64,000 nt of DNA, from the NCBI GenBank assembly GCA_963784835.1, contig CAWASM010000002.1:108930-172929 (forward strand), read 5' to 3'. The notes beneath the pieces are model-generated. The model was not told where the DNA came from. It saw only the letters and a list, made by a program, of their open reading frames with translations, and did not search any database. The translations under genes and the position numbers were made by a program. The DNA is from an uncultured Actinomycetes bacterium (GTDB taxonomy: Bacteria > Actinomycetota > Thermoleophilia > RBG-16-64-13). Shown here one piece after another: positions 7,059 to 53,957 of this stretch (position 1 is the stretch's first letter; every line of letters begins with the position of its first letter).

Positions 7059-8663
7059 CTATAAAGTAGGCGGCGCGGAACAGAGTGCGGGACCAGTCAG
7101 GCGCCAGCTCGACGCCCTGCACTTTCGCACTCGCCCCGGCTGCGGCCGTCTCGAAGAACGGCACGATGACCGGACCGCGTTCGATCAGGATCTGCTGTGC
7201 CTGCTTGTAGAGATCGGCGCGCTTGGCTCGATCGAGCTCACTGTTGATCTGCGCGACGAGGGTGTCGAACTCGGGGTCGCTCCAGTGTGATTCGTTGTAG
7301 GCGGCGCCGGTGACGTACGCGGCGTTGAAGTAGGTGTTGGGAGTGGCTCGAGCCCCCCATTCGGTGATGCCGAAATCGACCTTGAGCCAGCTGGTGTCGC
7401 CCTCCCCGTAATACACGTCCGGAGGCAGCGTCTGGATGTCCACCGTCACCCCGATGGCCTTCATCTGCTCCTTCCACACCGTCGCGATTGCCGGCACCTC
7501 AAGGGCCTGCTGGGCATAGAGAGTTATGGTCAGACCACCCGCGAACCCGGCTTGGGCCAGCAGGGTCTTGGCTTGGGCTGGATCGTAGGCGGGAGCTTGA
7601 TCCAGATAGTAGTCCCCGTAGGCCGGGCCCACGGGCGTGCCGTTGCCCACCACCGCCAGCCCCGGCCGCACCTGATCGATGAGTCCCTGGTGGTCGGTGC
7701 CCAGCTGCAGTGCTTGGCGGACACGCGGGTCGGCCGCCGGGTGTCCGGCGTCGGAACGCATGTGGATCACATAGTGGAAGGCGCTGGAGGGCCCGGTGAT
7801 GATCTTCAAAGTGGAGTCGGCTCCGATGGAATCGACCAACTCGGAGGTCAGCCCGGCCACGAACTGCACCTGATCTCCCCGCAGGGCCTCCACCTGGCCG
7901 GCCAAGTCGGGCGAGAAGATGAACTGTATCTCATCAAGGTAGGGGAGCCGCGTGCCCTGAGCGTCCTGCATCCAGTATCCGGATTCTTCTTAAGAATGGC
8001 CCTATCTTCCGCCGAGTACGACTCTATGGTGAAGGGGCCCGTGCCCACCCATTCCGCCGCGGGATCGGCGATCGCCTTGGAGAGAATGGCCGCGTGGTAG
8101 TCGGCTACATCGCTCGGGAATTCCGGGTTGGGTTCTTTGAGATCAAACTCCACGTGACCCGGGTCAAGAGCCTTGATGCCGGTGACGTTGGCATAGAGGC
8201 CGACCAGCGGCGAGCCGACGTCGGGGTCGCGGAGCCGGTCGAAAGTATAGACCACATCGTCGGCGGTGAACGGCGAACCGTTGGAGAACTTGACCTCGGA
8301 GCGAAGGGTGAAAGTCCAGACCTTGCCGTCCGGAGACGCCCATTCGGTGGCAAGCCCAGGGAGCAACTGATTGTCCTGCCCCACCTCCACCAGCCAGTCG
8401 TAGACCTGCTGGTTGATCAGGATGTCGGAGCGCGCGCTCGCGAACGCCGGGTCCCGGTTGGCCGCCGGCTCGGCGGCTACCTGGAGGACCCCCCCGGTCT
8501 GGACCGCAGCCATGGTGGTAGACGCGCCGGCCGGAGACGACGTGGTGGTATCTTGGGTGCCCGAGCCGCAGCCTGCGAGAAGAAGAACAGCCGCCAGGAT
8601 CAGCAGCCAAGATGATCCTCGGGATAGCCTCCCACCCTCTGCCCTCGCTGAGTCAGACCACAT
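7059..8663 (-). CDS. ABC substrate-binding lipoprotein, family 5 (peptide/nickel), frameshift near 7970
   Basis: Signal peptide plus lipobox LLLAGCGSG; family-5 SBP sequence continues in the 6700..7971 ORF; expected TAG lies at 7059 after frame correction. Confidence 0.65.
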
Positions 8664-8876
8664 CGTATCCCCTCCTTGTCCGGATCACGGCAGACTGCAA
8701 GCTTCTTGCTGGTTCACGCCACAAGTTACCCGTGGGCATCTCGGCTCAAACGGCTGGGGGGCCGCGGCCGGCGCCTCGCAACAGCCGTCTTGGTTTGCGA
8801 CTCGAGCGTCCCAGGGGAAGAGATGCTAGACAACGGAGAAAGTGCCATCCCAAGGACACGAAGAGCGGAGGAGCCG

Positions 8877-10262
8877 ATGTCATCGACGCGCCAGTACGAT
8901 GCGATCATCATCGGGGCCGGTCAGGCGGGGGTCCCCTTGGCAAAGAGCTTGGCCAACGCCGGCTGGCGAACAGCCCTTGTGGAGCGGGAGCACGTAGGCG
9001 GAAGTTGCATCAATGAGGGGTGCACCCCCACCAAGACCATGGTCGCCTCGGCCCGTGTGGCCTATCTCGCCCGCAGGGCCGCGGACTACGGGGTGACGAC
9101 TGGCGCCGTGTCGGTCGACATGGGCGCGGTCAGACAAAGAAAGCGCGACCTGGTGGAGAGCTGGCGCGCAGGCAGCGAGCGCCGCCTGCGCGCCCTGGAC
9201 AACCTGGACCTGTTGATGGCGGAAGCCAGTTTCGTGGGGTCACACCAGATCGCGATCCGGCCATCTGAGGGAGAGACTCAGGTTGTTCAGGCGGAGCGCA
9301 TCTTCGTTAACACGGGTGCGCGCCCCTCGGTGCCCCCTTTGCCCGGACTCCAGCAGGTCCCCTTCTTGGACTCGACCACCATCATGGAACTCGACGAGAT
9401 CCCCGAGCACCTGCTGATCCTTGGCGGAGGGTACGTCGCGGTGGAGTTCGGCCAGATGTTCCGGCGCTTCGGAAGCAAGGTGACGGTCGTCCAGAGGAGA
9501 GATTCGCTCCTCGTCCGCGAGGACACCGACGTGGCTGACGCGTTGGCCACGATACTGCGGGAGGACGGCATCGAGTTGGTGCTGGGAGCCGAAGCCCGCG
9601 AGGTCGCCGCCGGGTCCCAGGGGGGAGTGTCGTTGAAGGTCGTGGTGGCATCCGGCGCCCGCACCTTGACCGGGTCCCACTTGCTCGTGGCGACCGGGAG
9701 GACCCCGAACACGGCGGCACTCGACCTGCCGGCCGCCGGCCTCCAGGTAGAACAAGCGGGCATATCCCGGTGAACGAGCGCTTGGAGACTAAGGTCAGCG
9801 GCATCTACGCTCTGGGCGACGTCAAGGGAGGACCGGCTTTCACGCACATCTCCTACGACGACTTCCGTATCATCCGCACGAACCTGCTGGAGGGTGGCGA
9901 TGCCACCATCAACGGCCGGCTCGTGCCCTATACCGTCTTCATGGACCCGCAACTCGGTCGTGTGGGCATCAGCGAGCGCGAAGCTCGCGACAAGGGGCTC
10001 GCAGTCAAGGTCTTCACCATGCCCATGGACTACGTCGCCCGCGCCCTGGAAGTGGACGAGTCACGAGGGTTCATGAAGGCCGTGGTCGATCAGACGACCG
10101 ATCGCATCTTGGGCTTCACGGCGTTGGGGATCGAGGGCGGCGAACTGATGGCCATGGTCGAGGTGGCCATGATGGGCGGGGTGACGGCTTCCGCCCTTCG
10201 CGAGAGCCGTATTTGCCCATCCGACACTGGCCGAATCACTGAACAACCTGTTCGCCGGTTAG
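8877..10262 (+). CDS. FAD-dependent pyridine nucleotide-disulfide oxidoreductase (class I; RclA/MerA/Lpd-like), frameshifts near 9770 and 10190
   Basis: [18 protein letters not shown]...[13 protein letters not shown] redox-active disulfide; C-terminal [13 protein letters not shown] dimerisation motif sits in a shifted frame. Confidence 0.6.
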
Positions 10263-10358
10263 AGACGGCACAAGTCACCGCCGCCTAGCTGGGAGTTTCG
10301 CTACGCGCCCGTTTGGGGGATATCGAAGCGAAAGAGCAGTCTGCGAAGGAGGAGTCCC

Positions 10359-10568
10359 GTGGGTAAGGTACCGGATACACCAGAAAACATGGCGCGCTGC
10401 ATGTGCGGCGGCTGCCCATCCTATCCCGGCGAGGGCGGCTTCTTCTGCGCCAAGGGCAAGAGCGCCAAGGAGATAACCAAGCGGGGTTGCCTCTGTGCTG
10501 GCTGTCCGATATTCAGGGCCAACGGTCTTACCGGCGGTTACTTCTGCGTCGCCGGCCAGGCGGAGTGA
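10359..10568 (+). CDS. DUF2769-type small cysteine-rich protein
   Basis: CMCGGCPSYPGEGGFFCAKG...GCLCAGCPIF...YFC motif arrangement. Confidence 0.5.
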   Translation: MGKVPDTPENMARCMCGGCPSYPGEGGFFCAKGKSAKEITKRGCLCAGCPIFRANGLTGGYFCVAGQAE

Positions 10569-11113
10569 CTGCCGCCCCGCGCCTGCTTGCCCTGGTGGCG
10601 CTCGCCACGCTCTTCGCCATGCCGGTCGTCTTGGCCTGCTCCTCGGCCGATGGTACCGACCCGACGACGACAAGTGCCGCCACGGGCTCGTCCGGCGCCA
10701 CCAGCGAGACGACGGGCACCAGCAGCTCTGCGGCCCAGGTCGGCGACCCCGGTCCTGACGGGGTGGGCATTGTAGTGGCCAGCTCCGACGGATCGGGCAC
10801 CTACGTCGACATCACTCCCGACGAGCTTGCCGCTATGCTCAAGCACAAGGACTTCCTCTTCATCAACGTCCACATCCCATACGCGGGGGAGATCGAGCAG
10901 ACAAACCTCTTTCTACCCTATGATCAGGCCGCCGAGCAATTGGACCAGCTCCCGGCCGACAAGAGCGCCAAGATCGTCGTCTATTGCCGTAGCGATCGCA
11001 TGAGCCGTATCTCGGTGAACGAGTGGGTCAAGGCCGGCTACACGAACCTCTACAATCTCGACGGCGGATTCGATGCCTGGGAAGCGGCCGGTTACAAGCT
11101 TCTGCAGAAGTAG
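10565..11113 (+). CDS. Rhodanese-domain lipoprotein (sulfurtransferase-like)
   Basis: GTG start overlapping the DUF2769 stop (GTGA); signal plus lipobox VVLACSS; Ser/Thr-rich linker; rhodanese fold with active-site Cys in VVYCRSDRMS. Confidence 0.6.
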   Translation: MTAAPRLLALVALATLFAMPVVLACSSADGTDPTTTSAATGSSGATSETTGTSSSAAQVGDPGPDGVGIVVASSDGSGTYVDITPDELAAMLKHKDFLFINVHIPYAGEIEQTNLFLPYDQAAEQLDQLPADKSAKIVVYCRSDRMSRISVNEWVKAGYTNLYNLDGGFDAWEAAGYKLLQK

Positions 11114-11278: not shown

Positions 11279-11640
11279 ATGAAGCGCCTTGGGTTTCTCG
11301 ATCGGTTCTTGACCCTGTGGATCTTTCTGGCCATGGGCATCGGGGTGGCGGCGGGGTACTTCTGGCCCCAGATAGGCAAAGCCATAGAGCGCGCGTCTAT
11401 CGGCACCACCTCCATCCCCATCGCCATCGGGCTTATCGTCATGATGTACCCGCCTCTGGCCAAGGTGCACTACGAGGAACTGGGCGACGTCTTTCGCAAT
11501 TGGAAGATCCTGGGGCTGTCGCTTGTTCAGAACTGGATCATCGGCCCCATCCTCATGTTCTTCCTGGCGATCCTCTTGCTCTCGGACATGTCGGCTCTCA
11601 TGCAGGGCTTCATGATCGGGCTGGCCCGGCACGCATCATC
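11279..11640 (+). pseudogene. acr3: ACR3-family arsenite efflux permease, N-terminal ~120 aa only
   Basis: [30 protein letters not shown]... typical ACR3 start; sequence degenerates after ~120 aa (full length is ~350 aa). Confidence 0.6.
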
Positions 11641-11901: not shown

Positions 11902-12734
11902 GTGTCTGAGAGCAAAGACAACGATACTGTCCGTGACGCCGTGCGCGACCGTTACGCAGACATCGTGAAGGTGGGCGGATCGTGCTGCGGCGGCTCGCTC
12001 TGTTGCGGATCTTCGCCAGCCGGAGAAGAAGACCACCAACCATACATCGCCCGCAAAGTGGGGCATGCCGAGTCGCTCAAGCTCGGCTACAGCGAGGAAG
12101 AGCTGGCGGCAGCGCCTGAAGGCGCCAATCTGGGCTTGGGATGCGGCAATCCGCAGGCTATCGCGGCTTTGAAGCCGGGTGAAGTCGTGGTGGATCTAGG
12201 TGCGGGCGCGGGCTTCGACTGCTTCCTAGCCGCACGGGCTGTCGGCCCGGACGGCTTGGTGATAGGGGTGGACATGACCCCAGAGATGGTCGGCAAGGCC
12301 CGCGACAATGCGCGCAAGGCGGGCTACGCCAACGTCGATTTCCGGTTAGGTGAGATCGAGCACCTTCCGGTGGCCGACAAGACCGCGGACGTGATCATCT
12401 CCAACTGCGTGATCAACCTGTCGCCCGACAAGCCGGCGGTGTTCCGGGAGGCGTTCCGGGTGCTGAAGCCGGGCGGTCGTCTTGCGGTAAGCGACGTGGT
12501 GGCTACGGCCGAGTTGCCCCAGGAGTGGCGGGACGACATGCGCCTGCTTTCGGCCTGCATCTCGGGAGCAATCACGTGGACGAAGTGGAGGCGATGCTCA
12601 CGGCTGCCGGTTTCGTCGACATCGACATCCACCCCAAGGAAGAGAGCCGGGAGTTCATCCGCAAATGGGAGCCGGGGACCCGGCTGGAGGACTACGTGCT
12701 GTCGGCCAGCATACAGGCGACAAAGCCACGGTAG
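11902..12734 (+). CDS. arsM: Arsenite S-adenosylmethionine methyltransferase ArsM (frameshift near 12560)
   Basis: N-terminal Cys pairs [13 protein letters not shown]; SAM-binding [11 protein letters not shown]; ...[11 protein letters not shown]...; C-terminal ...[18 protein letters not shown] in a shifted frame. Confidence 0.7.
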
Positions 12735-12770: not shown

Positions 12771-13507
12771 GTGGAGAAATGGTACGAGACTTTGGCCCTC
12801 TTCTCGGACGTGCACGGCAACCGCCTCGCTCTCTGAGGCAGTTCTGGATGACCTGAAGGCTCGAGAGATCACCAGGCTGTACTGCCTGGGTGATCTGGTC
12901 GGGTACGGTGCCGATCCCAATGGGGTGATCGACCTGATCCGCAGCGGGGGCGTTGAAAGCATCCTCGGCAACTACGACGAGGGGGTCGCCTGGGAAACAG
13001 GCGACTGCGGCTGTTTCTACGGGGACGAGGAGGCCAAGCGGATCGGTGAGGCATCTTACGCCTTCACCGTCGCCGCGGTGACGGCCGAGAGGAAGGCCTA
13101 TCTGCGCACCCTCCCCAGGGAACGACAAATAGAACTCGCCGACAAGAAGGTCCACCTGGTCCATGGCAGCCCGAGTCGCATCAACGAGTATCTGCTCCCG
13201 CGATCGCGACGAGCGGACCTACCAGCGACTGGCGGAGACCGAGTCGGCAGATGTTCTTGCCTTCGGGCACACTCACGACCCCTGGTTCCGCCGGTATGGG
13301 GAGACACTTTTCGTGAACGTAGGTTCAGTGGGGCGACCCAAGGATGGCGACCCTCGCGCGGCCTTCGTGGTTCTGAGATCGTCTGCAGAAGCGTCCGTGG
13401 AAGTGGAAATCGGGCGGGTCGCATACGACGTAGAGGCTGCAGAGGCTGCAGTCCTCGCCGCCGGTCTTCCGGCGGCGCTCGCCGAGGCGCTACGCCAAGG
13501 AAGGTGA
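12771..13507 (+). CDS. Metallophosphoesterase (YfcE/MJ0936-like), frameshifts near 12810 and 13200
   Basis: [10 protein letters not shown] ... [11 protein letters not shown] ... LVHGSP ... AFGHTHDPW motifs over three frames. Confidence 0.55.
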
Positions 13508-13542: not shown

Positions 13543-13977
13543 ATGAGCGACACGCAACAAGAGACCGGCGCGCAAGCGGACGCCGGCACACAGCCGGTGC
13601 TGCCCGGCCTGATCATGTGCGTCTGCACCGGCAAGTGCCCGGGATTCGAGAAGATGGACATCTGGGACTTCATCAACCGGGTGCGCATCGAGCTGCCGGT
13701 GGAGTTCGGGATGATCCACCCACAACTCTGCGAAGAGGATGGAGACCGCTTCCTGGCCGATATCCTGCAGGCCAAGCGGCCGCTGGTCATCGCCGGCTGC
13801 GCCCCCAACATGCAGTACAAGATGTTCCGCGACGCCTTCGCCGCGCAGGGCATGGACGTGAAGAAGGACATGGTCCCGCTCGACATCCGCGACATGACCA
13901 CCGATGAGGCGTTCGAGAAGGTGGCGGCCGCGCTTCGCGAGATGGGCGTCGAGGAGGACGGCGGCGAGGATGGCTGA
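13543..13977 (+). CDS. Cysteine-rich protein (CxC-x3-C ... C ... AGC), possibly MvhD/FlpD-like Fe-S protein
   Basis: LIMCVCTGKCPGF...QLCEEDGD...LVIAGCAPN; assignment tentative. Confidence 0.35.
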   Translation: MSDTQQETGAQADAGTQPVLPGLIMCVCTGKCPGFEKMDIWDFINRVRIELPVEFGMIHPQLCEEDGDRFLADILQAKRPLVIAGCAPNMQYKMFRDAFAAQGMDVKKDMVPLDIRDMTTDEAFEKVAAALREMGVEEDGGEDG

Positions 13978-14262
13978 GAACACCTTCATGGGCGTGCCCC
14001 GGGAGCAAGATCCCCTGGGCGCCCACCATCGACTACGACAAGTGCGACTTCTGCATGGAGTGCGACGAGTTCTGTCCGCACCGGGTCTTCGAGCGGCGCG
14101 AGGGCGACAAGAAGCTGGTGGTGGCCAATCCCGAACAACTGCGTGGTCTTCTGCCGGGCCTGCTCCAAGACCTGCGGCCCCGACGCGCTCTCGTTCCCGG
14201 ACAAGCCGGAGACCGTGGCTCTCATCAAGAAGACTGCACGTTCCGAGGAGGGCGAGGCATGA
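13970..14262 (+). CDS. 2x[4Fe-4S] ferredoxin (frameshifted)
   Basis: CDFCMECDEFCP and CVVFCRACSKTCGP motifs; reading frame breaks twice. Confidence 0.5.
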
Positions 14263-14740
14263 GCTACGTGGTCCTTGCCTGCACGGGTCTCGACAAGGCC
14301 GAGGGTTCGGTGGCCCGCGAAGTGGCCCTTCTGCCTGGCCGAGGAGACCGGAGCGGAGATCGTCTGCCCGGTGGTGCTCAATCGCACGCCGGCCCGCTAC
14401 AAGAAGACGCTCGCCGAGAACCGAGCTGATCGTGGTGGACGGCTGCGCCACCCAGTGCGCGAGCAAGCTGGCCGCAGCCGCGGAGACCAAGCCGGCGCAG
14501 AAGGTGCTGGTCTCCGAGGCGGTGAAGAAGTCGGGCCGCACTCTGGAACCCGAGCTCCGCCTTGGTCCCGATGCTCTCGAGCTTGCCCGAATGATCGTCG
14601 ACGACATCAAGGCGGCCGAAGACTGCCTCGTCCGAGGAAACGCGAGGGGCCGCAGAGAGCAGCCGACGGAGGTGGAGTTCGAAAGCCCGTCGGATTTCAC
14701 CGTGGTCGTCCACGACAAGTACGAGTTCCGCATCCCTTGA
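14259..14740 (+). CDS. DGC-domain protein (paralog 1)
   Basis: VVLACTGLDKAEG ... VVDGCATQCASK. Confidence 0.5.
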
Positions 14741-15126
14741 CCGGCTACTTCTTCAACGCCAACGACGTCTGGGTGCAGGTGGCCGGCACCAGGGCCCGGG
14801 TCGGCATCTCCGACTACATGCAGCAGCGGCTCACCGATATCACCTATGTGGACCCGCCCGAGGTCGGCGACGACCATCGAGCAGTTCGACGAGGTGGGCA
14901 CGGTCGAGTCGACCAAGGCCACCTTCGAGATGGTCTCGCCGGTGAGTGGCACGGTGGTGCGCATCAACGAGGCGGTGGACGACGCGCCCGAATCGATCAA
15001 CGAAGACCCCTACGGCAGCTGGATCGTCGAGCTGGAACTGACCGCCTGGGAGGAGGACCGCGACGTTGCTGGTCGACGGACCGGCCTACGCCGCCGACGT
15101 CGAGCGCAAGGCCGCAGAAGACTGAT
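14737..15126 (+). CDS. Glycine-cleavage H-protein-like lipoyl carrier (frameshifted)
   Basis: VWVQVAGTRARVGISDYMQQRLTDITYVDPPEVGD...IEQFDEVGTVESTKATFEMVSPVSGTVVRINEAVDDAPESINEDPYGSWIV, lipoyl-Lys in ESTKA. Confidence 0.55.
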
Positions 15127-15570
15127 GGGCAAGAGACAGATCGGAGGACAGATGAACGAAGACTCCGACAAGGTGCTCGTGATTCCCTGCAGCGGCATCG
15201 GCAAAGTCCATGGGCTCATCAGCCGGGAGTCCGCCTATCTGGTCACCGACGAGCTTGCCCCGGCCGAGACCGAGGTGGTGTGCTTGGCGCTGCTGGTGAG
15301 GGAAGACGAGGAGACCCTGGCCAAGGTGCGGGCGCATCCCTGCATCACGATCGACGGTTGTGCGAAGGCCTGTGCGCAGAAGAACGTCGAGATCGCCGGT
15401 GGGCAGGTGGCAAAGGCGTTTCAGGTGGCTACGGCTCTCCGGAATCACCGGGGAGCCCAGCCGGGCACCGGGTCGGAGCTCACCGAGGAGGGCTGGGCCA
15501 TCAGTCGGGAGATCGCCGAAGCCGTGGCCGAGACGCCGCCCGAATCTGCGCCGGCGAAGAGGTGGCATGA
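15125..15570 (+). CDS. DGC-domain protein (paralog 2)
   Basis: VLVIPCSGIGK ... ITIDGCAKACAQKN. Confidence 0.45.
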
Positions 15571-15983
15571 TGGCTGCGGAGATGAACAAGACCACGAAGG
15601 TGGGGATCATCTCCTGCAGTGGCGAGGAGATCGCCGAGGGCACCATCTCGCGCAGCGCCGTCCGCAGGGTGCTGGAATCCTTGCGGCCCCACGAGACCGT
15701 GACGCTCTGTCTGCCCCTGTTCCTGGCGGGCAACGAGGGCGAGCGCAACTTCGCCCGGACCCATCCGTCATCACCGATCGACGGATGCGACAAGCAATGC
15801 GCGACGATGGGGCACCGAGAAGCACGGGGCGGCCGGTCGCGCGCGCGCTGGTGGTGTCGGAGATCCTCGGGGGGAGGGCCGCCGGCTGTCAGCGCTCTTC
15901 GCGATCCCAGAGGCCGGCGGACGAGAAGCCGTGCGGTCGTGGCGGCCGAAGAGATCAGCTCGGCGGTCGACGCGCTCCTCTGA
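15567..15983 (+). CDS. DGC-domain protein (paralog 3), frameshifted C-terminus
   Basis: VGIISCSGEEIAEG ... ITIDGCDKQCATM. Confidence 0.45.
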   Translation: MMAAEMNKTTKVGIISCSGEEIAEGTISRSAVRRVLESLRPHETVTLCLPLFLAGNEGERNFARTHPSSPIDGCDKQCATMGHREARGGRSRARWWCRRSSGGGPPAVSALRDPRGRRTRSRAVVAAEEISSAVDALL

Positions 15984-16029
15984 GAGCAGCGAGGTCGTGC
16001 AGAAGGCAGCCTCCGGTGAAGGGTGGAAC

Positions 16030-16419
16030 ATGGACACTCTGGCCGACACCTTCAAGGCGCTCTCTGACGAGACGCGGCTGCAGATCATGACGCTGCTCCT
16101 CGAACGCGAGGAACTCTGCGTCTGCGACTTCGTCGGGGCGCTCGGACTGACCCAGTCGAAGGCTGTCTCGCCACCTCCGCTACCTCTACCATGCCGGGCT
16201 GGTAGAAGGACCGCCGGGAGGGGCTCTGGATGCACTACCGCATCTCGCCCGACTTGCCCAAGGAGCAGGCGACCATCATCGAACGCGCTGTCCCTGGCGG
16301 TCGGGGCGGACCAGAAGCGCGATCTGCGGCAACGGCTGGACGATTGGCTCGCTCTCAAGGACGAAAGACGGACGCCCGACCGGCAGCGAGGGCCAGGCCG
16401 GAGCCTGCTGCTATCCTAG
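16030..16419 (+). CDS. arsR: ArsR/SmtB-family metalloregulator with As(III)-type CVC site (two compensating frameshifts)
   Basis: DETRLQIMTLLLEREELCVCDFVGALGLTQSK ... SRHLRYLYHAGLVE (shifted) ... LWMHYRISPDL. Confidence 0.65.
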   Translation: MDTLADTFKALSDETRLQIMTLLLEREELCVCDFVGALGLTQSKAVSPPPLPLPCRAGRRTAGRGSGCTTASRPTCPRSRRPSSNALSLAVGADQKRDLRQRLDDWLALKDERRTPDRQRGPGRSLLLS

Positions 16420-16427
16420 GAGAAGAA

Positions 16428-18690
16428 ATGCGACCCAAGGAGCGACCATTGAGCGCTAGTCTCCCGGGAAGCGGCGACAGGGTCATCCCCACCTTCTGTC
16501 ATGGCTGCGGGTCGTACAAACCCGTCTGCGGCCTCCTATGTCACGTGAAAGACGGCAAATTCGTCAGAGTGGAAGGCAATCCGGACGCGTTCAACAACGG
16601 CGTTCCCGGTTCCACCTCCCTCTGCGCCAAGGGTCTTACGGGCCCACAGTTCGTGTATGCGGCCGACCGCTTGAAGTACCCCCTCAAGAGGATCGGGCCC
16701 AAGGGCGAGGGCAAGTTCCAGCGCATCACCTGGGACGAGGCTCTGGACACCATCGCCGACAAGTTGAAGGAGACCAAGGCCAAGTACGGTCCGGAGGCCT
16801 ACGGGGTGCTCTCCCCCGAGTATTGGCCGGTGCTCGGCACGCTGGGACGCCGGTTCCTCAACGTGTACGGCAGCCCGAACTACATGCACAGCGCCATCTG
16901 CGCGACACCCCGCATGGCCGCCGCGAAGGTGACCGTCGGCTACATCAGCATGGAGCCGGACGACTGGAACAAGACCAAGCTCTATGTCAATTGGGGTGCG
17001 AACGTCGAGAACTCCGGCGTGAACAAGGGCACCCCCCGGGCCATCCTCGACGCACTTGCGAACGGCATGCAGTACATCGATATCCGCCCGATGCTGGACC
17101 CCTTGGGAGCGAAGGCCGACATGTGGCTGCCGGTGAGGCCGGGCACCGACTGCGCGCTGGCGCTGGCGATGTTGAACGTCCTCATCGGCGAGAGCTTGTA
17201 CGACGCGGACTTCGTGGCGGAGTGGTGCCACGGCTTCGACAAGCTGGCCGAGCTACGTGCGCCGGTTCCCACCAGAATGGGCGGCGCCCATCACCGGCCT
17301 GCCGACACAACAGATCCGCGAGGCCGCCCGCCTCATCGGGACTACCCGCCCGGCGTTCATCAAGATGGGCAACGGCATCGGCGACCAGACCAACGACGGC
17401 ACTTCGACCACCTCGGCTATCTCTCTCATAGCCGCGATAACGGGCAACCTCGACGTACCCGGCGGCCATTTCGCCCCATCCGGCGGCTTTGGGCCGCTCG
17501 CCCCCACCCTGGAAGAGCTAGCTCCTCCCGGCATGGTGGAGAGACTGGTCGCTCCTGAGAGCCCCATGTGGTACCAGAAGAAAGGGTGGTGGGAGAGCGG
17601 ACCGACCACCGCCTATTACAAAGGACTCATGAGCATCCTCACCGGCGAGCCCTACCCGCTCCGCGTGCTCAACGCGAGTTGCTCCAACCCGCTGTCGGCC
17701 ACCCGGAATCCAAAGAAGGTGGCTGAGGCCCTGAAGAAACTCGACTTTATGTTCGTTATGGACGTCTCCCACGCTCCCCACGTCGACTTCGCCGACATCG
17801 TGCTCCCCGCCTGCACGAGCTACGAGCAGGGCGACTTCTTCTGCACCAGGAACACGCGCGAAGGGGTCTGGGTGGGTGGCTACAACAAGGTGGTCGAGCC
17901 TCTGGGTGAGTCGCGCAGCGACTGGCGCTTCTATCTCGACCTGGCCGTGCGCATGGGCTACGGCGAGCACTTCTGGCAGGGCAGCATGGACGGTCTCACC
18001 AACGAGATGCTTGCCCGCTACGGTGTCACCGCGGAGCAGTTGCGGCAGAATCCCGGGGGGATACTGGTAGCCAGGTCCGATCCGCCGGGCGGCGCGCGCG
18101 AGTACCGCAAGTATTCCACCCTCTTCAAAGACCTGCCCCAGGGTAAGGTGCAGTGCTACAACGAGCTGATCGGCGGCCAGGAGAGCTGCGACGAGAGCGG
18201 GCACGCTGCCCTACTTCCCCGTCTACAAGGGCCCGCCCGAAGGACTCGCCGAAACGCCGGGACTGGCGAAGGAGTTCCCGCTGATCCTAAGCGACGTCCA
18301 TGCCCACCGCCTATCCCAGCACAGCTACTTCCACAATGTCGCCTACCTGCGCGAGCTGCAGCCCTATCCCTGGCTCAAGATCAATCCGGCGACTGCGGAG
18401 AAGCACGGCATCGCCGACGGCGACTGGGTGAGAGTCGAGTCCCCGTATGGCTGGTGCAGACTCAAGGCCGAGTACTTCGCTGCCATCAGCCCTGAGGTGC
18501 TGATGACCAAGCGAGGGTGGTGGCAGTCGTGCGAGGAACTGGATCTGCCGGGCTACGGCACCAGCGACGGGGGCAGCGAGGTCAACAACCTCTATAACTC
18601 CGACGAAGAGTTGTTCGACAAGTTCTTCTCGCAGATGGCGAAACAGACGCTGGTCAGGATCAGCAGATGGGAAGAGACTCGGAACTCGAT
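16428..18690 (+). CDS. Molybdopterin (bis-PGD, DMSO-reductase-family) oxidoreductase catalytic subunit; no Tat signal, so cytoplasmic; frameshifts near 17270 and 18210
   Basis: N-terminal Fe-S CHGCGSYKPVCGLLCHVKDGKFVRVEGNPD; conserved MGNGIGDQTND and GDWVRVESPYG domain-IV motifs; RBS AGGAGAAG. Confidence 0.65.
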
Positions 18691-18842
18691 TCAGAATGAA
18701 GATACGACGACAGCCTGCGATGGACGAGTGCGAGGCAAGGACGCAGGAAGCGCTCGTAGTGGTGCTACGTGCGCGACCGAGGACGACGCCTCGTGCCGTC
18801 CAGTGCAGACTCGGCGGCCGCAGCTTCATTTTGAATCGAGTT
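18683..18842. repeat. 19-bp inverted repeat (AACTCGATTCA[G/A]AATGAAG) flanking a 122-bp spacer between the Mo-enzyme subunit genes
   Basis: Arms at 18683-18701 and 18824-18842 with 1 mismatch. Confidence 0.45.
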
Positions 18843-18850
18843 GTCAGGCC

Positions 18851-19312
18851 ATGGTGGAAGGGTACGCATTCAGTCACGATCCCCAGAGATGCATCAAGTG
18901 CTACAGCTGTGAGACGGCCTGCAAACAGTGGAAAGGCGTCGCTGCCGGCACTGTGAAGTTGCGCAGGGTCTACGAGGTCACTACCGGCACTTTCCCGCGG
19001 GTCACGAGGACCTTCCATTCCGTTGCCTGCCAACACTGCCCAGAGCCCCCGTGCGTCGACGCGTGCCCCACAGGAGCCATCGGCAAGACGGCGCCTGACG
19101 GGATCGTCATGGTCGATGCCGGGAAGTGCGACGGTTGCCGGGCATGTCTGGATGCGTGCCCGTTCGGCGTGCCGCAATTCGACCACGACGGCATCCTACA
19201 GCTGTGCGATCAGTGCCTGGACCGGCTGACCGAAGGCAAACGACCTATCTGCAGCGACGCCTGCCCGACCGGTGCGCTTCTACATACCGGGGATGCGGGG
19301 CACCTTACCTAG
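18851..19312 (+). CDS. 4Fe-4S ferredoxin-type electron-transfer subunit of the molybdoenzyme (DmsB/PsrB-like)
   Basis: CIKCYSCETAC, CQHCPEPPCVDACP, CDGCRACLDACP, CDQC...CSDACP cluster motifs. Confidence 0.65.
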   Translation: MVEGYAFSHDPQRCIKCYSCETACKQWKGVAAGTVKLRRVYEVTTGTFPRVTRTFHSVACQHCPEPPCVDACPTGAIGKTAPDGIVMVDAGKCDGCRACLDACPFGVPQFDHDGILQLCDQCLDRLTEGKRPICSDACPTGALLHTGDAGHLT

Positions 19313-20449
19313 CTTGCGCAGCTTGTAGTACCGTCCCCAACTCTTCTTCAGCCAGTGCCCGACAAAGGGCAGCGGGACGAACAGCGCGCGCTTCTCGTCC
19401 CGGTAGACAAATCCGGCGCCGTTTCCCATGTCCATGACGCAGATGATGCACAGCTCGTCGATGTAGCTCCCGCTCCGTCCGCGGCCGGTCTCTTTCCGGA
19501 CGATATCCTCCGCGGCAGTCCGGGCCATCACTTCCGCCATGTGACCCTGCTTGGCCTTCCACTCAGGTCCCTCCAAGGCGGCCATATCGCCGATAGCGTA
19601 AAGCCAGGGATACCCCTTCACCTCGCATGCCTGGTCTATCAGGACAAAGCCGGCTTCGTTTCGCGGGAGGTCTGAGGACTCCATGACGCCGTGGCCGGCT
19701 CCCGCGGGGATGAACATCACTAGATCCGCCTCGATCCTGGTCCCATCCTCCAGGACGACTGCGCCTTCCACGAACTCGCTTATCTTCTTGCCAGTGTAGG
19801 AACGGATGTCAAGAGACGGGAGCATGCGGTCCATGGCGCGCACCGCTTTCTCCCCCATCCGAATACCGGGTTGAGGCATGGGCGCGAAGAAGACAAGGTC
19901 GAAATCCTTACGGATCCCCAGCTTCTTCAACCGATGGTGCACGTTGAACAGAAATTCGAACCCGGGACCGCCCCGCACGGCGCTGCTGTCCTTCGGATTG
20001 CCCCCGAAACCGACCGCGATCGTCCCGCTGCCCGCGGCGATGAGTGCGTCCAGTCGCTCGCGCACGCGAGTGCTTTCCTCAGGAGCACCGCAGATGGAGA
20101 GCGTGTGCTCCTTGCCTTTGTGCGGCATCTTGGCGGCGCCAAGAGCCAGTACCAGATAGTCGAAGTCCTGGCGTTCTCCGCCGTCCTTGAGCGTAAAGCT
20201 GCGTCCGGCGGCGCTGACCGCTGTGACCTGGTCAACGGTGATCTGGAACCCATGCGCCCGGGCGATATCGGCAAGTCCGATGCTCACCCGCTCGACCGAC
20301 CGTTCTCCCGTGGGGATCCAGATGGCAAGCGGATAGACGAAGAGGTAGTCCCTGTCGGAGACCAGTTCGACTGCGAAGCCCTTCTTCTTCAGCTCGATGG
20401 CGGCCTCTACCCCGCCGATGCCCCCACCCAAAACGACTGCGCGCTTCAT
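19280..20449 (-). CDS. FAD-dependent NAD(P)H-disulfide-oxidoreductase-fold flavoprotein, SQR/NDH-2-like
   Basis: MKRAVVLGGGIGGVEAA Rossmann motif; ...WLYAIGDMAA...; intact 389 aa. Confidence 0.55.
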   Translation of the reverse strand: MKRAVVLGGGIGGVEAAIELKKKGFAVELVSDRDYLFVYPLAIWIPTGERSVERVSIGLADIARAHGFQITVDQVTAVSAAGRSFTLKDGGERQDFDYLVLALGAAKMPHKGKEHTLSICGAPEESTRVRERLDALIAAGSGTIAVGFGGNPKDSSAVRGGPGFEFLFNVHHRLKKLGIRKDFDLVFFAPMPQPGIRMGEKAVRAMDRMLPSLDIRSYTGKKISEFVEGAVVLEDGTRIEADLVMFIPAGAGHGVMESSDLPRNEAGFVLIDQACEVKGYPWLYAIGDMAALEGPEWKAKQGHMAEVMARTAAEDIVRKETGRGRSGSYIDELCIICVMDMGNGAGFVYRDEKRALFVPLPFVGHWLKKSWGRYYKLRKLGKVPRIPGM

Positions 20450-20542
20450 TTCTGACTCACCTTCGCTTTCAGCCTCTGGCCACTTCAGACCAGACTAAGT
20501 ATAATGCACCAATGTGCAAAACTACCAGGTGGGAGAAGAGCC

Positions 20543-21262
20543 TTGGCGCGACCAGCGAAATGGCGCTGTCTGGAGTGTCTTCCGGGGGCGAAAGCCTTCG
20601 GCCCTGCCGGAGTGCCCGTGGGAAGACTCGAGAAAGTGCGTCTGGCTTTTGACGAACTCGAGGCGCTCCGACTGCTCCACCTGGAGGGAGCCACGCAAGC
20701 GGAGGCGGCGCGGAGACTGGGCGTGTCGCGCTCCACGGTCAGCCGGATGGCCGAACGAGCGCACCACACTGTCACCGAAGCCTTGGTCTTCGGCAAAGCA
20801 GTGTGCGTCGAGGGCGGACCTGTGACGGTAGTGCGGATCGGGGAGGCTCCGGAGGGCGCCCCCCGCGACGGCATGGAGACGAACACAAACAGCACCGACG
20901 AAGGAGGAGACAGAATGTTCATTGCAGTGCCTTATCTAGAGGGGAACGTGAACGCGCACTTCGGTAGCACCCAGGCCTTCCTGTTGGCGGAGGTGGTCGA
21001 CGGCAAGGTGACGGGGACGTCGATCTTTGAAGTCCAGGGCATGCAGCACAACCACTCAGGCATAGCAGGGTTCTTGAAGGAGCAAGGGGTGGAGGTCATC
21101 CTGGCCGGAGGCATGGGCGCGCCGATGCAACAGGCACTCAAGGCCCAGGGGTTCAGCCTCTACTGCGGTGTCGCCGGACCGGCTCTTGAGGCAGTGGATG
21201 CCTATCTGCGCGGAGCGATAGAGCAAAGCGAAAGCACCTGCGGACATCATCACGGGGAGTAG
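20543..21262 (+). CDS. DUF134 (UPF0251) DNA-binding domain fused to a NifX/NifB-type FeMo-cofactor-binding domain
   Basis: RPAKWRCLECLPGAKAFGPAGVP...LEALRLLHLEGATQAEAARRLGVSRSTVSR then MFIAVPYLEGNVNAHFGSTQAFLLAEV...VILAGGMGAPM; TTG start after a GGGAGAAG RBS; TATAAT at 20497-20502. Confidence 0.5.
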   Translation: MARPAKWRCLECLPGAKAFGPAGVPVGRLEKVRLAFDELEALRLLHLEGATQAEAARRLGVSRSTVSRMAERAHHTVTEALVFGKAVCVEGGPVTVVRIGEAPEGAPRDGMETNTNSTDEGGDRMFIAVPYLEGNVNAHFGSTQAFLLAEVVDGKVTGTSIFEVQGMQHNHSGIAGFLKEQGVEVILAGGMGAPMQQALKAQGFSLYCGVAGPALEAVDAYLRGAIEQSESTCGHHHGE

Positions 21263-32186: not shown

Positions 32187-33197
32187 TCAGTCTAGTAGAC
32201 GGGCGCGATCACCAAGCTCCTCGTAGCGGAACAGCCGCCCGTAGTCCAGCAGGCCGGCCAGCGCCCCAGTGCGGAACACCGGGATGCCCTTCTCCTCTAG
32301 GATGGCCACCGGATTGAGTCCGCCCACCACAACAACGCCGAGGCGGCCTTCACTCACCGGGATCTCGAGCAGCGGGCGCCCTGGCCAGCCGACCAAGTGG
32401 ATGGCGCCCAGACCGACCTGCTCCATCTGGCGACCGAGATCCAGCACGTGGTCACGACTGTCGGCAGGCACCTCCCTGAAACTGGCGCCGATGAGGCCGT
32501 TGCCCGTCCGCGTGGCCCCCACGTAGTCGGTCATGACGCTGCGGATGAAGATTTCCAACGGGTCCAAGGTCGTCCCGTCGTAGTTGATCCACTCGGCGAA
32601 GCGGGTGGCTCTGTGCTCGCGCATCTCCAGCAGTCCCCCAAAACGAGAGTTGGTGGGGATGCCGTGGGCCACCAGCACGCCGTTCACCGTGATCGAGCAG
32701 ACGGTGGCTATGCCCACGCTGCCCTCAGGCACGGCCATCTGCCCTACGCTCTCTCCCGGCTGCAGCAGCGCGACCAGCTTGCCCATTGCGTAGCCGGCGG
32801 TGAACACCTGGCTCATGAGGGGGATGGACCGCTCGAGCTGGTCTCTGGGGATGACGCTCACATTCACCACGACCGTGCCCGTCTTCTTGAGAAGATCGAA
32901 GTTCATCTTGTAGGTCATTTGATCGATCTTGGCCGACAGGATGCCGACCTTCTCGAAGCCCCTGGACGTGTCAAGCTCGCTCAGGCCCCGCGGTGTGATA
33001 GCCCGCCCATTGCGGCCCAGGTTCTGCGTAAGACCCACCTTGTCCATGTCGAGCAGATGAAAGCGAACAGTCCTCTCGCTGACATCGTGGCCCATCGCTG
33101 AGAGCCGCTCCGTGATCTTGGAGCTGCCCAGCGGCCCTGCGGCCTCGCGGAGAATCCGCAGGATAGCGAGACGCTTCTCTTCGGTCCTCTCTCTCAT
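32187..33197 (-). CDS. NrpR-like nitrogen regulator (winged HTH plus two DUF128 domains)
   Basis: MRERTEEKRLAILRILREAAGPLGSSKITERLSAMGHDVSERTVRFHLLDMDKVGL then two DUF128-like halves; start at the internal Met of ORF 32187..33368. Confidence 0.55.
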   Translation of the reverse strand: MRERTEEKRLAILRILREAAGPLGSSKITERLSAMGHDVSERTVRFHLLDMDKVGLTQNLGRNGRAITPRGLSELDTSRGFEKVGILSAKIDQMTYKMNFDLLKKTGTVVVNVSVIPRDQLERSIPLMSQVFTAGYAMGKLVALLQPGESVGQMAVPEGSVGIATVCSITVNGVLVAHGIPTNSRFGGLLEMREHRATRFAEWINYDGTTLDPLEIFIRSVMTDYVGATRTGNGLIGASFREVPADSRDHVLDLGRQMEQVGLGAIHLVGWPGRPLLEIPVSEGRLGVVVVGGLNPVAILEEKGIPVFRTGALAGLLDYGRLFRYEELGDRARLLD

Positions 33198-33243
33198 AGG
33201 TGCGAATCTTACCAGGAAATCTGCCAATACCCGCGCCGGTAGC

Positions 33244-33255
33244 GGCAAGTTTGCC
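33244..33255. promoter_or_regulatory. Palindromic GGCAAGTTTGCC site 1 in the nrpR/hnd divergent region (candidate NrpR operator)
   Basis: Second identical site at 33378-33389; resembles the archaeal NrpR operator GGAA-N6-TTCC. Confidence 0.35.
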
Positions 33256-33377
33256 GCTCGCCCGTCAAGGCGCCGCCGAACCAGAAGCGGTGCAACATCG
33301 TGCGCAGCACCCAGTAGGGCGGCTTGCGCCGCCGGAGTGCGGCCGCCTATGAGAACGGCAATTGCCATACTGCTACC

Positions 33378-33389
33378 GGCAAGTTTGCC
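33378..33389. promoter_or_regulatory. Palindromic GGCAAGTTTGCC site 2
   Basis: Both copies share the extended context CGGCAAGTTTGCCGCT. Confidence 0.35.
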
Positions 33390-33672
33390 GCTATTGCCCC
33401 ACTAAGTAGCAACAACACTGGCTGCTTATGTTGCTGTTTGCGCGGACCTGCTGCTACAGTGGCGCGGCAAATCAATGCCGCAACTATGGATGCACGACGC
33501 GCCGGTCTTCAGAACGGGGCTGTGGGACGGAGTTCAAAGGCTCACTCCCTTCTCTCGGCTGGTGGCCGGAGGGTTTGGCAAGTCTCGGCCGGTACGCCTC
33601 GAGGGAGGCGGCGCGCCCATACCGCCCAGCAGGCAGCAAAGCGCATGAAGGTGAGGAGGGCCCGCAGAAAGT

Positions 33673-34188
33673 ATGAAAACGAGCAGCCTCGAAGCGATCC
33701 TAAAGAACCGTGGCACCGAGCCGTTCGCCATCATGGAGGTCCTACACGACGTGCAGGGACAGTACGGGTACCTCCCCGAGGAGGCGCTCCGTCGGGTCTC
33801 CGCCTCGTTCGATATCCCTCTCATCGAAGTATTTCGCCTGGCCAACTTCTACAGGGCGTTCAGCCTCAAACCCCGTGGGCGTCATCTACTGACGGTCTGC
33901 GCGGGCACGGCGTGCCACGTGCGGGGAGCGCCCAGGTTGCTGGACGAGGTGACCGCCCAGCTCAAGGTCCAGCCCGGCGATACCACCGAGGACAGAGCAT
34001 TCACCCTCGAGACCGTCAACTGCCTGGGAGCCTGTGCGCTGGGCCCAGTTGTCGTCGTCGACGGCACCTATCACGACCACATGACTCCGGCCAAGTTGAA
34101 GTCGCTGCTTGGGGATATCCGCGCAGGCGACTCTGCGACGGCCACAGAAGGCCTGGCCGGCAGCATGGAGGTGATCGCCAATGGCTAG
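33673..34188 (+). CDS. NuoE/HndA-like [2Fe-2S] NADH dehydrogenase 24-kDa-type subunit
   Basis: ...VCAGTACHVRGA...VNCLGACALGPVVVVDG. Confidence 0.7.
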   Translation: MKTSSLEAILKNRGTEPFAIMEVLHDVQGQYGYLPEEALRRVSASFDIPLIEVFRLANFYRAFSLKPRGRHLLTVCAGTACHVRGAPRLLDEVTAQLKVQPGDTTEDRAFTLETVNCLGACALGPVVVVDGTYHDHMTPAKLKSLLGDIRAGDSATATEGLAGSMEVIANG

Positions 34189-36025: not shown

Positions 36026-36035
36026 GAGGTCATAC

Positions 36036-36740
36036 ATGGCAAATATGGTGACCATAACTGTCGACGGGGCCCAGATCCAGACACCTGAGGGCTCCAGCGT
36101 GCTGGAGGCGGCCCTCGAGGCAGGCATCTGCATCCCCAATCTGTGTCACATGCCCGGCGTCAGCCCTATCGGGGCCTGCCGGGTGTGCATCGTCGAAGTG
36201 GTGGAGAACGGCGGGCGCAAGATGACAGCGTCGTGCACGTTGGAGGCCAGAGAGGGCCTGGTGGTGGAGGCGCACTCCGAAGCAGTCGTGCGCGCCCGGC
36301 ACAACATCGTCGAGCTCCTCCTGGCCGAGGCTCCAAACTCACGCGCCATCCAGGACCTGGCCGCGCGGGTGGGAGTGACCCGGTCGCGCTACCCCATGCG
36401 CAACAACGACTGCGTCCTCTGCGGCAAATGTGTGCGCATCTGTGGCGAGGTATGGCAGTCTCACTCCCTTGGCTTCGTGGGCCGAGGTGGCGACCGGCGC
36501 GTGGCCCTGCCCTTCGACAAGCGACCCGACCTCTGCAAGCGCTGCAACAACTGCGTGGAGGTCTGTCCCATGACCATCACCCCCTGCCCAGGCCCCCAGG
36601 CAGAACCGGGCATCTGCGGGTTTTGCGAATCCCAGACGACCATGGTCGAGAACATCCCCGACACGTGCGTCATGTGCGAACTGGGCCGAGGCTTCCAGTG
36701 CGTGCGGTGGCAGCTGCGCGGGGTCTTGGCCGAGAACTAG
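36036..36740 (+). CDS. NuoG-N-terminal/HndD-N-like [2Fe-2S]+[4Fe-4S] ferredoxin subunit
   Basis: ITVDGAQIQTPEGSSVLEAALEAGICIPNLCH...GACRVC; CVLCGKCVRIC; CKRCNNCVEVCP. Confidence 0.65.
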   Translation: MANMVTITVDGAQIQTPEGSSVLEAALEAGICIPNLCHMPGVSPIGACRVCIVEVVENGGRKMTASCTLEAREGLVVEAHSEAVVRARHNIVELLLAEAPNSRAIQDLAARVGVTRSRYPMRNNDCVLCGKCVRICGEVWQSHSLGFVGRGGDRRVALPFDKRPDLCKRCNNCVEVCPMTITPCPGPQAEPGICGFCESQTTMVENIPDTCVMCELGRGFQCVRWQLRGVLAEN

Positions 36741-36795
36741 TGACAACCGGTAAAGAGTCGAGTGATCCGTCGCTGACGATAAGAAGGAGCTCCTC

Positions 36796-43163: not shown

Positions 43164-43205
43164 GCGCGGCGTCCCCGTTCCAGCGCATTCGAAGAGGAGA
43201 GGAAG

Positions 43206-45194: not shown

Positions 45195-45198
45195 GCGG

Positions 45199-53534: not shown

Positions 53535-53770
53535 TGAAGGGCGGAGAAATGGGGCACATGATGAAGGATCTCACTGCGCTCCTGCAGTACCTGGTGAAGC
53601 ACAACGAAGAGCACGCGGACGAGATCGTGGAACTGGCCGGGCGCGCCCGTGAGCTCGGAAGAGAGGACGCCTACGGCCACTTGGTCCGCGGCGTCGAGCT
53701 CCTAAGGGACTCGAACACGAGCCTGCGCGCCGCTCTCGTCACATTGGAGGGGCAGGATGTGTCTCGCTAA
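53531..53770 (+). CDS. Small helical His-containing hypothetical protein
   Basis: GHMMKDL...HNEEHADE...YGH; no domain recognised. Confidence 0.3.
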   Translation: MMKGGEMGHMMKDLTALLQYLVKHNEEHADEIVELAGRARELGREDAYGHLVRGVELLRDSNTSLRAALVTLEGQDVSR

Positions 53771-53957
53771 AGCGTACGTCCGAGCTTCGGCGACCGACGC
53801 CGAGGGCAAGCTGCTTATGGAGAACGTCATTCGCGTAGAAGTAGACGGCGACCGGGTTCATCTCTCGTCGCTGCTGGGCGACTCGGAGGAGCTGCAGGCC
53901 CGCATCAGCTTCGTCAGCTTCGTCGACTCAAGACTCGTTCTGGAGACGTCAAGATGA
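53757..53957 (+). CDS. CooT-like small Ni-binding CODH accessory protein
   Basis: 66 aa starting MCLAKAY (Cys2), size and pattern of the CooT family. Confidence 0.5.
   Translation: MCLAKAYVRASATDAEGKLLMENVIRVEVDGDRVHLSSLLGDSEELQARISFVSFVDSRLVLETSR

Follow-up and report, generated by a model that had tools for sequence, protein, structure and literature searches.

The interval 16428-19312 of a 64,000-nt stretch of DNA (the window, in which all positions are given unless a comparison locus is named) contains two genes, one for the 749-amino acid (aa) catalytic subunit of a predicted molybdenum or tungsten enzyme (alpha, 16428-18676) and one for a 153-aa electron-transfer subunit (beta, 18851-19312). 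On balance, this pair probably encodes a soluble cytoplasmic two-subunit oxidoreductase with a Mo/W-bis(pyranopterin guanine dinucleotide) (Mo/W-bisPGD) centre, which would act as an electron sink or a detoxifying reductase. The original prediction, which was made from this DNA alone, had taken the whole interval as one gene for a catalytic subunit of this type under an arsenite-responsive repressor. Instead, alpha ended at about 18676, beta was a separate gene, and alpha was not an open frame in the sequence as read. Alpha, beta, the ars module, and the DUF134/Nitro_FeMo-Co gene described below lie on the forward strand; the fetched comparison loci are numbered L001-L099, and homologous proteins carry P-numbers.

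Two-subunit molybdoenzyme and its Tat-less clade

Alpha was read in three frames (16428-17252, 17254-18201, and 18203-18676), which were located using the open reading frame (ORF) list, three-frame translation, and a frame plot of the G+C content at third codon positions (GC3). After frame correction, the best homologue was 84% identical, and three Pfam domains, namely Molybdop_Fe4S4 (E-value of 1e-9), Molybdopterin (7e-45), and Molydop_binding (3e-18), were matched, all above their gathering scores. Together with the four-domain fold in the model of homologue P0001 and a protein ligand of the metal, these domains assign alpha to the DMSO reductase (Mo/W-bisPGD) superfamily, as had been proposed. 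The motif C24-x2-C27-x6-C34...C66 (16497-16625), located within the Molybdop_Fe4S4 domain (residues 18-77), corresponds to the [4Fe-4S] cluster FS0, and its four cysteines were invariant in the 115 sequences compared. The predicted Mo/W ligand is Cys158 (HSAIC158ATPR, codon 16899-16901). This residue was also invariant in the 115 sequences and aligned with Cys141 of acetylene hydratase (AH), Cys173 of PsrA, and Cys193 of ArrA. The residue following the ligand was alanine in 108 of the sequences, not the histidine of formate dehydrogenases (FDH).

Beta (Pfam Fer4_11) contained 16 cysteines in four ferredoxin-type groups, for four [4Fe-4S] clusters, and had no leader; its best NCBIfam match was DmsB, below the cut-off of that model. 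In the homologues, alpha ends with ...RWEEA and a stop codon, and the ATG of beta follows 3-10 nt later. A beta gene was located after alpha in every locus long enough to show it, and four homologues (P0043, P0046, P0051, and P0089) were natural alpha-beta fusions.

None of the NCBIfam equivalogs was reached by alpha in the NCBIfam scan: its best match, PhsA, scored 291 bits (cut-off of 694), and ArrA gave 145 bits (cut-off of 1600). Beta gave 82 bits with ArrB (cut-off of 450). When the family profile was compared with the PDB, the scores were 308 bits for AH, 276 for PsrA, 231 for FdhF, 203 for ArrA, and 114 for transhydroxylase. A fold search with the AlphaFold model of P0001, the homologue with 84% identity (mean pLDDT of 81.7), gave template modelling (TM) scores of 0.77 for AH (25% identity), 0.73 for PsrA (24%), and 0.74 for ArrA (21%).

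The signature residues of these relatives appeared to be replaced in alpha. The position of AH Asp13, which we take to be the residue after the second FS0 cysteine of AH that activates the bound water, was Gly28 in 113 of the 115 sequences; this correspondence was set by motif position, the PDB alignments stopping short of the AH N-terminus. The RGRY of ArrA, presumably its arsenate-binding motif ((R/K)GRY, Arg165-Tyr166 in Shewanella ArrA), aligned with S-P-E131-Y132, in which Glu replaces Arg165 and Pro130 is invariant in the family. At the positions of His145 and Arg332, which we take to be the proposed catalytic residues of Thermus thermophilus PsrA, Val126 and Gly316 were found, the latter in an invariant GNGIGDQ, with an uncertain pairwise alignment (24-30% identity) around Arg332. 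Since the signature residues of AH, ArrA, PsrA, and FDH appear to be missing, the alpha clade is predicted to be a branch of its own, uncharacterised and near Psr and AH.

Alpha starts at ATG 16428 with the N-terminal peptide MRPKERPLSASLPGSGDRVIPTFCHGCG, behind a Shine-Dalgarno-like AGGAGAAG (16418-16425) that ends 2 nt before the ATG and whose core AGGAG (16418-16422) sits 5 nt ahead of it; the peptide and its own ribosome-binding site had both been predicted and were read directly from the sequence. An alternative start, TTG 16449, with AAGGAG (16437-16442) 6 nt before it, still gives no twin-arginine translocation (Tat) leader. The coding sequence of the preceding arsR gene reaches approximately 16412, and the conserved VIPTFCHGCG of alpha starts at 16479. 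Because the gap between them is 23 codons, a Tat leader is impossible with any corrected start, and the leaderless N-terminus of the original prediction stands. Among the 120 best alpha homologues, 113 (65-84% identity) had no RR motif, comprising 106 with the N-terminus present, in which 8-61 residues precede the first cysteine, and seven truncated at the N-terminus. The other seven (60-66% identity) had RRxFLK leaders. The Tat-less sequences formed one monophyletic group in a neighbour-joining tree. As alpha and beta are both leaderless, Tat hitch-hiking export is excluded as well, and the enzyme is classed from its sequence as cytoplasmic. A respiratory ArrA or PsrA had also been ruled out in the original prediction, which agrees with the missing Tat leader, the missing anchor, and the family cut-offs that were not reached. 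AioA, which had been dismissed on the same ground, itself has no Tat leader, which is carried by its Rieske partner.

A Tat-bearing relative, L084, had the classical PsrABC layout: Tat-alpha and beta were accompanied by genes for a two-component system, an NrfD anchor, and a TorD-like chaperone. NrfD and TorD-like genes were confined to loci at 54-63% identity. We infer that the Tat-less clade descends from a periplasmic respiratory reductase of the Psr type and became cytoplasmic and anchor-less. This clade comprises at least 113 database clusters (65-84% identity) from uncultured anaerobic Actinomycetota and Dehalococcoidia of digesters, peat, fens, and sediments. All 24 genome matches were metagenome-assembled genomes (MAGs), which belonged to Thermoleophilia, Gaiellales, and other Actinomycetota at 72-80% identity and to Dehalococcoidia at 65-69%, with a few more distant matches; the metagenome matches came from bioreactors, wetlands, and sediments. 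In one Thermoleophilia MAG (L028, 832-6570), two tandem alpha-beta pairs of the same clade were observed. A literature search yielded no characterised cytoplasmic Psr-like enzyme of Dehalococcoidia or Actinomycetota and no methylarsenical-reducing molybdoenzyme. Genes of the clade are routinely auto-annotated as "thiosulfate/polysulfide reductase chain A", though they come without export signal, anchor, and chaperone; metabolic reconstructions that score them as sulfur respiration are therefore probably wrong. The real feature in this interval is a widespread and mis-annotated cytoplasmic variant of the Psr-type molybdoenzymes.

Beta was the sole universal neighbour of alpha. The other neighbours varied and included POR, PPDK-like, MaoC, acyl-CoA dehydrogenase, radical SAM, DUF169, SDR, histone-deacetylase-like, and DUF134 genes. 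When all ORFs within 6 kb of alpha were clustered over all loci, the recurrent clusters were antisense shadow ORFs or reflected synteny of close relatives (SDR, histone-deacetylase-like, and GNAT). The only clusters shared between phyla were DUF169 and acyl-CoA dehydrogenase, with four loci each, and they revealed no pathway. A gene with DUF134 (helix-turn-helix) and Nitro_FeMo-Co (NifX-like) domains adjoins alpha-beta in two Dehalococcoidia loci (L085/L015, at 5915-6634 of L085, and L013, at 12940-13188). A gene of the same kind, with a putative DNA-binding and cofactor-binding product (Pfam), lies 1.2 kb downstream of alpha-beta in the window (20504-21262), and it may be a native regulator or cofactor-handling partner of the pair. 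The sole sigma-70-like promoter match in 10.9-21 kb was found at 20477-20505, before this gene. The spacer there (20477-20530) was conserved with L089 and contained a small palindrome, TGCACC-AATGTGCA. On the minus strand, convergent with beta, a gene for a pyridine-nucleotide-disulfide oxidoreductase (19280-20449; Pfam Pyr_redox_2) was found, which is SQR-like or NDH-2-like with weak NCBIfam matches.

ArsR junction and integrity of the region

The gene directly preceding alpha, arsR (16030-16419; Pfam HTH_5), is the final gene of an ars module. Its product scored 98 bits with NCBIfam NF033788 (cut-off of 55) and 96.4 bits with PRK10141 (cut-off of 97). Its metalloid site EELCVCDF lies in helix 3 of the ArsR/SmtB winged helix, as expected for the type 1 As(III) repressors. 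The frame-corrected protein was 80-90% identical to intact orthologues of 126 aa, which end with a cysteine pair (...ACC). Upstream of arsR, arsM and acr3 were present in both the window and L089, and the ArsR orthologues occur in acr3-arsM modules. By these features, arsR encodes a repressor of the As(III) type. The original prediction had placed alpha under such a regulator and 8 bp after its stop codon. The type of the regulator was borne out by ELCVCDF and NF033788, but control by ArsR did not prove to be a property of the enzyme, as described below. Likewise, the distance is correct in the raw frame, in which the arsR stop TAG (16417-16419) is 8 nt before ATG 16428, whereas the frame-corrected arsR would overlap the alpha start. 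Neither a promoter-like nor a terminator-like match was found between arsR and alpha, so that read-through transcription is the simplest expectation; alpha-beta would then be arsenite-inducible by its position.

The other genes of the module are on the same strand as arsR. They are an acr3 fragment (11288-11630; positions 1-115 of 327 of NCBIfam TIGR00832), the arsenite methyltransferase gene arsM (11906-12600; NCBIfam NF008823, 319 bits, cut-off of 263), a metallophosphoesterase gene, and, at 13970-16010, a ferredoxin-like gene, a DGC+GCV_H fusion, and two DGC-domain genes, which were recognised by Pfam and by tblastn with the L091 orthologues. Compared with L089 (3132-3869), acr3 lacked approximately 530 nt; this is not a frameshift but either a true deletion or a collapse in the assembly. 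The series ferredoxin-DGC/GCV_H-DGC-DGC-ArsR (13970-16419) was conserved in L088 (6538-9414) and L090-L099. No ArsC-type gene was seen in the ars module of the window or its relatives. Three further genes were observed upstream of the ars genes (8650-11110). One of them, for a class-I pyridine-nucleotide-disulfide oxidoreductase (GGSCINEGC), is frameshifted near 9760; the others encode a Cys-rich DUF2769 protein (10263-10565) and a rhodanese (10.4-11.1 kb) that has a lipoprotein-type leader. The rhodanese was considered as an arsenate reductase and rejected on account of this leader and of its loop, which by eye is C-x6-R, not C-x5-R.

To survey these associations, ArsR, ArsM, Acr3, DGC, GCV_H, rhodanese, and other neighbours of the window were used as tblastn queries against approximately 80 loci, in which beta was found everywhere, DUF134 twice, and nothing else. 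An ArsR-like gene was found in none of the 36 distinct homologous loci with at least 600 nt upstream of alpha, even at a tblastn E-value of 1 or less, and the same loci, 28 of which belong to the Tat-less clade, had neither arsM nor acr3. Examined from the other side, the orthologous arsR was followed by alpha-beta in none of 12 loci: the next gene was an FGE-sulfatase gene in 10 (Illumina contigs), the DUF134/Nitro_FeMo-Co gene in one (L089), and an unrelated uncharacterised gene in one (L088). As no ars association was seen in the relatives, the arsenic coupling amounts to adjacency in one genome. Over the loci compared, the arsR-alpha adjacency is lineage-specific and not a trait of the enzyme family, and alpha-beta occupies a variable slot directly after arsR.

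The two extra bases of alpha were placed by DNA alignment with the closest homologue locus, L002. The first +1 frameshift (17253-17254) is due to an extra base in GAG-C-TAC, outside any homopolymer, and the second (18199-18202) to GG read as GGG, the extra G being in 18199-18201. In arsR, DNA alignment with the L088 and L089 orthologues indicated four single-base insertions, at approximately 16165, 16208/9, 16282/3, and 16380/1; when the fourth is removed, the gene ends at TAG 16456-16458. At least 10 frame changes were present in the 2.5 kb before arsR (the 13970-16010 module), and the pieces were 79-93% identical in aa to the intact Illumina orthologues (L091, tblastn), with at most one stop per aligned piece. 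The corrected alpha contained no nonsense codon and agreed with 114 homologues at every one of their 114 invariant columns and at 267 of the 268 columns with a conservation of at least 95%, a result equal to that of intact homologues. Furthermore, genes in sibling long-read contigs were similarly fragmented, and several of the extra bases extend homopolymers. Because the conserved columns are kept and the frameshifts are dense without other damage, an indel-prone assembly fits better than decay, and the alpha frameshifts are most likely indel errors of long-read assembly. Raw ORF calls are unreliable in this region full of single-base insertions. In a hidden Markov model (HMM) of codon usage, short same-strand segments in shifting frames also appeared elsewhere in the window, for example at 53500-56300 and 59300-61500, which suggests further indel clusters outside the region studied. 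Gene boundaries and frameshifts were not separable by GC3 and the codon HMM alone; comparison with orthologues worked better.

Comparison of the alpha-beta junction with that of four homologues revealed an imperfect palindrome of 171 nt (18677-18847, with arms at 18683-18706 and 18819-18842), which stands in place of GCGTAG, the last codon and stop of alpha in the homologues. Its RNA fold was calculated to be -90.7 kcal/mol (z of -6.3 against shuffles). The length is a multiple of three with no stop in the alpha frame, so that alpha and beta as read are fused via 57 codons. Such a fusion need not be lethal, because four natural fusions exist among the homologues. The element had no second copy in the window, and none was detected in the remaining fetched loci (L001-L087); it also matched no Rfam family and no tRNA. 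A miniature inverted-repeat transposable element (MITE)-like element, an RNA processing or stability hairpin, and an artefact are the candidates for its nature.

The DNA of L089 was 77-84% identical to that of the window, and the block from 16414 to approximately 20435, which holds alpha, the palindrome, beta, and the convergent oxidoreductase gene, was absent from it. At 5925-5966 of L089, the start (seven codons, MKRAVVL) of the oxidoreductase found at 19280-20449 in the window directly adjoins the arsR stop, on the opposite strand. This junction looks like the scar of a 4-kb deletion that took the alpha-beta block, which suggests that the window arrangement is real rather than a mis-join, and also that the block is dispensable. 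The segment 3378-10685 of the window was likewise absent from L089.

Two alternatives concern the integrity of the region. One, which we consider unlikely, takes the lost stop, the truncated acr3, and the frameshifts as real and alpha-beta as a recent pseudogene in an eroding ars region. This view is favoured by the two frameshifts in alpha and four in arsR, by the removal of the alpha stop codon through the 171-nt insertion, by the shortened acr3, and by L089, which lost the whole block and retains seven codons of the neighbouring gene. In addition, several genes of 1.8-2.3 kb elsewhere in the window were intact, so that the damage is patchy and not uniform. On the other hand, the corrected alpha shows no nonsense codon and no substitution at the invariant positions, and the upstream pieces keep their aa identity; frameshifts at this density without other damage are typical of indel-prone assemblies. 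Like contigs are fragmented in a like manner, and several of the extra bases lengthen homopolymers. We consider it very unlikely that the arsR-alpha junction is an assembly chimera, that is, a mis-join at a strain-variable site with an adjacency that exists in no cell. The junction does fall exactly at the arsR stop, where related genomes hold different genes, and the indel density drops sharply across it, with 10 or more indels in the 2.5 kb before it and 2 in the 4 kb after it. However, the arsR stop of L089 is joined to codon 8 of the same oxidoreductase, which indicates an ancestral arsR-oxidoreductase linkage, collinearity with L089 extends over 6 kb of the right flank, and a compositional test for foreign origin of the block gave a flat profile across the junctions.

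Proposed function and its alternatives

In the function that we propose, a small substrate would be reduced (or, less likely, oxidised) at the Cys158-ligated Mo/W centre, with FS0 and the four clusters of beta as the electron path that links this centre, in either direction, to a soluble carrier, for instance ferredoxin. Rather than a proton-motive respiratory complex, the enzyme would be an electron sink or a reductase for detoxification. While the cofactor ligands, architecture, and localisation can be read from the sequence, the substrate, redox partner, and catalytic direction of this scheme are proposals. As a first guess from its sequence neighbours, the substrate may be a sulfur or oxo compound, such as polysulfide or persulfide, thiosulfate, or an S-, N-, or As-oxide. 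Genes for NuoE/NuoF-like and 2Fe-2S proteins, CO dehydrogenase (CODH; Prismane family), and acetyl-CoA synthase (ACS) beta were observed at 33655-38063 and 43164-47472, and a gene for an NrpR-type regulator was present on the minus strand at 32190-33401. The CODH/ACS and NuoEF-like genes indicate that the host is a ferredoxin-based anaerobe with Wood-Ljungdahl machinery.

Several points weigh against this interpretation. The neighbours of the homologues are heterogeneous and point to no single pathway, and a Psr-like substrate would be without active-site support, as PsrA His145 and Arg332 align with Val126 and Gly316. For the clade as a whole, any statement on the substrate, the metal, or the catalytic direction is a guess. 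The patchiness of the damage described above also speaks against indel errors of the assembly, and the missing part of acr3 makes some real decay of the island possible.

DMSO-reductase-family enzymes are well established to reduce element oxides, and the position of alpha directly after an As(III)-type arsR, with no promoter- or terminator-like site between, raises the alternative of an arsenic enzyme. Alpha-beta would have been recruited in this lineage as an arsenite-induced cytoplasmic reductase of pentavalent arsenic, namely arsenate, methylarsenate (MAs(V)), dimethylarsenate (DMAs(V)), or trimethylarsine oxide, feeding ArsM and Acr3 in a module without ArsC. This alternative is in line with arsM and acr3 upstream on the same strand, with the lack of a visible ArsC-type gene in the module and its relatives, and with the tightly spaced cargo genes that occupy the post-arsR slot elsewhere and suggest co-regulated accessory functions. 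A Psr/Arr-branch molybdoenzyme beside arsR has a precedent in the Dehalococcoidia cell DEH-C11, although that enzyme is Tat-bearing (PMC4959651). Nevertheless, we find the alternative improbable in view of the 0 of 36 homologous loci with ArsR, ArsM, or Acr3, the 0 of 12 orthologous arsR loci with alpha-beta, the SPEY with Glu for Arg165 in place of the ArrA RGRY, and the score with the ArrA model, far below its cut-off. Arsenate, one of the intracellular substrates that had been considered in the original prediction, is not favoured on account of the same SPEY. In its most specific form, an arsenite-induced and ferredoxin-driven reduction of pentavalent arsenic oxides (trimethylarsine oxide, DMAs(V), MAs(V), or arsenate), the idea has a very low probability. 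If it were true, the reductions needed in arsenic methylation and volatilisation would be carried out by alpha-beta, in an anaerobe with ArsM and Acr3 and without ArsC; we are aware of no bacterial enzyme dedicated to reducing methylated As(V) species. The arsR junction is thus an operon-like lead that offers a testable arsenic hypothesis, with a link that is weak on present evidence.

The other chemistry that had been suggested, a non-redox reaction like that of AH or a transhydroxylase reaction, is extremely improbable. Both the sequence comparison with the PDB (250-308 bits) and the fold search (TM of 0.77-0.81) had AH as the top match, and AH and pyrogallol transhydroxylase are both cytoplasmic. 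However, the identity to AH was 25%, the Asp13 position is glycine in nearly all sequences, the transhydroxylase match was weak (81-114 bits), and a four-cluster electron-transfer subunit, which AH does not have, was always co-encoded and sometimes fused. We therefore retain a soluble, cytoplasmic redox enzyme of two subunits as the preferred interpretation of alpha-beta.

Comparison with known systems

AH of Pelobacter acetylenicus (PDB 2E7Z) resembles alpha in that it is cytoplasmic, has no Tat leader, and contains FS0 and a cysteine ligand. The spacing of the FS0 cysteines is C-x2-C-x3-C in AH and C-x2-C-x6-C in alpha; moreover, AH is a non-redox monomer without an electron-transfer subunit, whereas alpha is paired with beta. 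ArrAB of Shewanella ANA-3 (PDB 6CZ7) shares the alpha-beta architecture and was listed as the third-best fold match (TM of 0.74), and H-S-x-x-C surrounds the metal ligand in both enzymes (HSSVC in ArrA and HSAIC in alpha). Unlike alpha, ArrA is exported by Tat.

Within the "Unk" clade between Arr and Psr, Duval et al. described in 2008 a Tat-less and anchor-less subgroup, which is a cytoplasmic derivative in the Arr/Psr/Ttr group of molybdoenzymes (PMC2500031). As described, it is set apart from the window pair by gene order and size, with B before A and an unusually large iron-sulfur subunit of 60 kDa, as opposed to A then B and a beta of 16 kDa (PMC2500031). The SoeABC sulfite dehydrogenase is likened to the window pair by description, its Psr-related, Tat-less alpha facing the cytoplasm like the alpha of the window. 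SoeAB is held at the membrane by the NrfD-type SoeC, and no such gene was found beside the Tat-less clade. A Soe-like cluster of Thioalkalivibrio is arsenite-induced and has been proposed to be arsenite-linked on transcript evidence (PMC6620896).

By gene neighbourhood, the window pair is similar to DEH-C11.399 of a marine Dehalococcoidia single cell (Wasmund et al. 2016), a Psr/Arr-branch enzyme located beside an ArsR-family gene, an S-adenosylmethionine (SAM) methyltransferase gene, and an arsenite efflux gene, that is, in the same gene company (PMC4959651). It differs from the window pair in having a Tat leader and FDH-like beta and gamma subunits, and its authors read it as a respiratory arsenate reductase (PMC4959651).

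PsrA/PhsA, as in T. thermophilus PsrABC (PDB 2VPZ/2VPW) and Salmonella PhsA, belong to the same superfamily and share the order of alpha then beta. PsrA was the second-best PDB match to alpha by sequence and fold, and PhsA was the best NCBIfam model. FS0 and the cysteine ligand occur in PsrA in a similar motif (SLCTAPR, compared with AICATPR in alpha), and an acidic residue precedes YW in both (GDYW in PsrA and PEYW in alpha). The alpha-beta clade differs from Psr in the lack of a Tat leader, an NrfD/PsrC anchor, and a chaperone, and in a beta of merely about 150 aa, whereas the PsrABC layout is complete in the Tat-bearing sister clade at approximately 60% identity.

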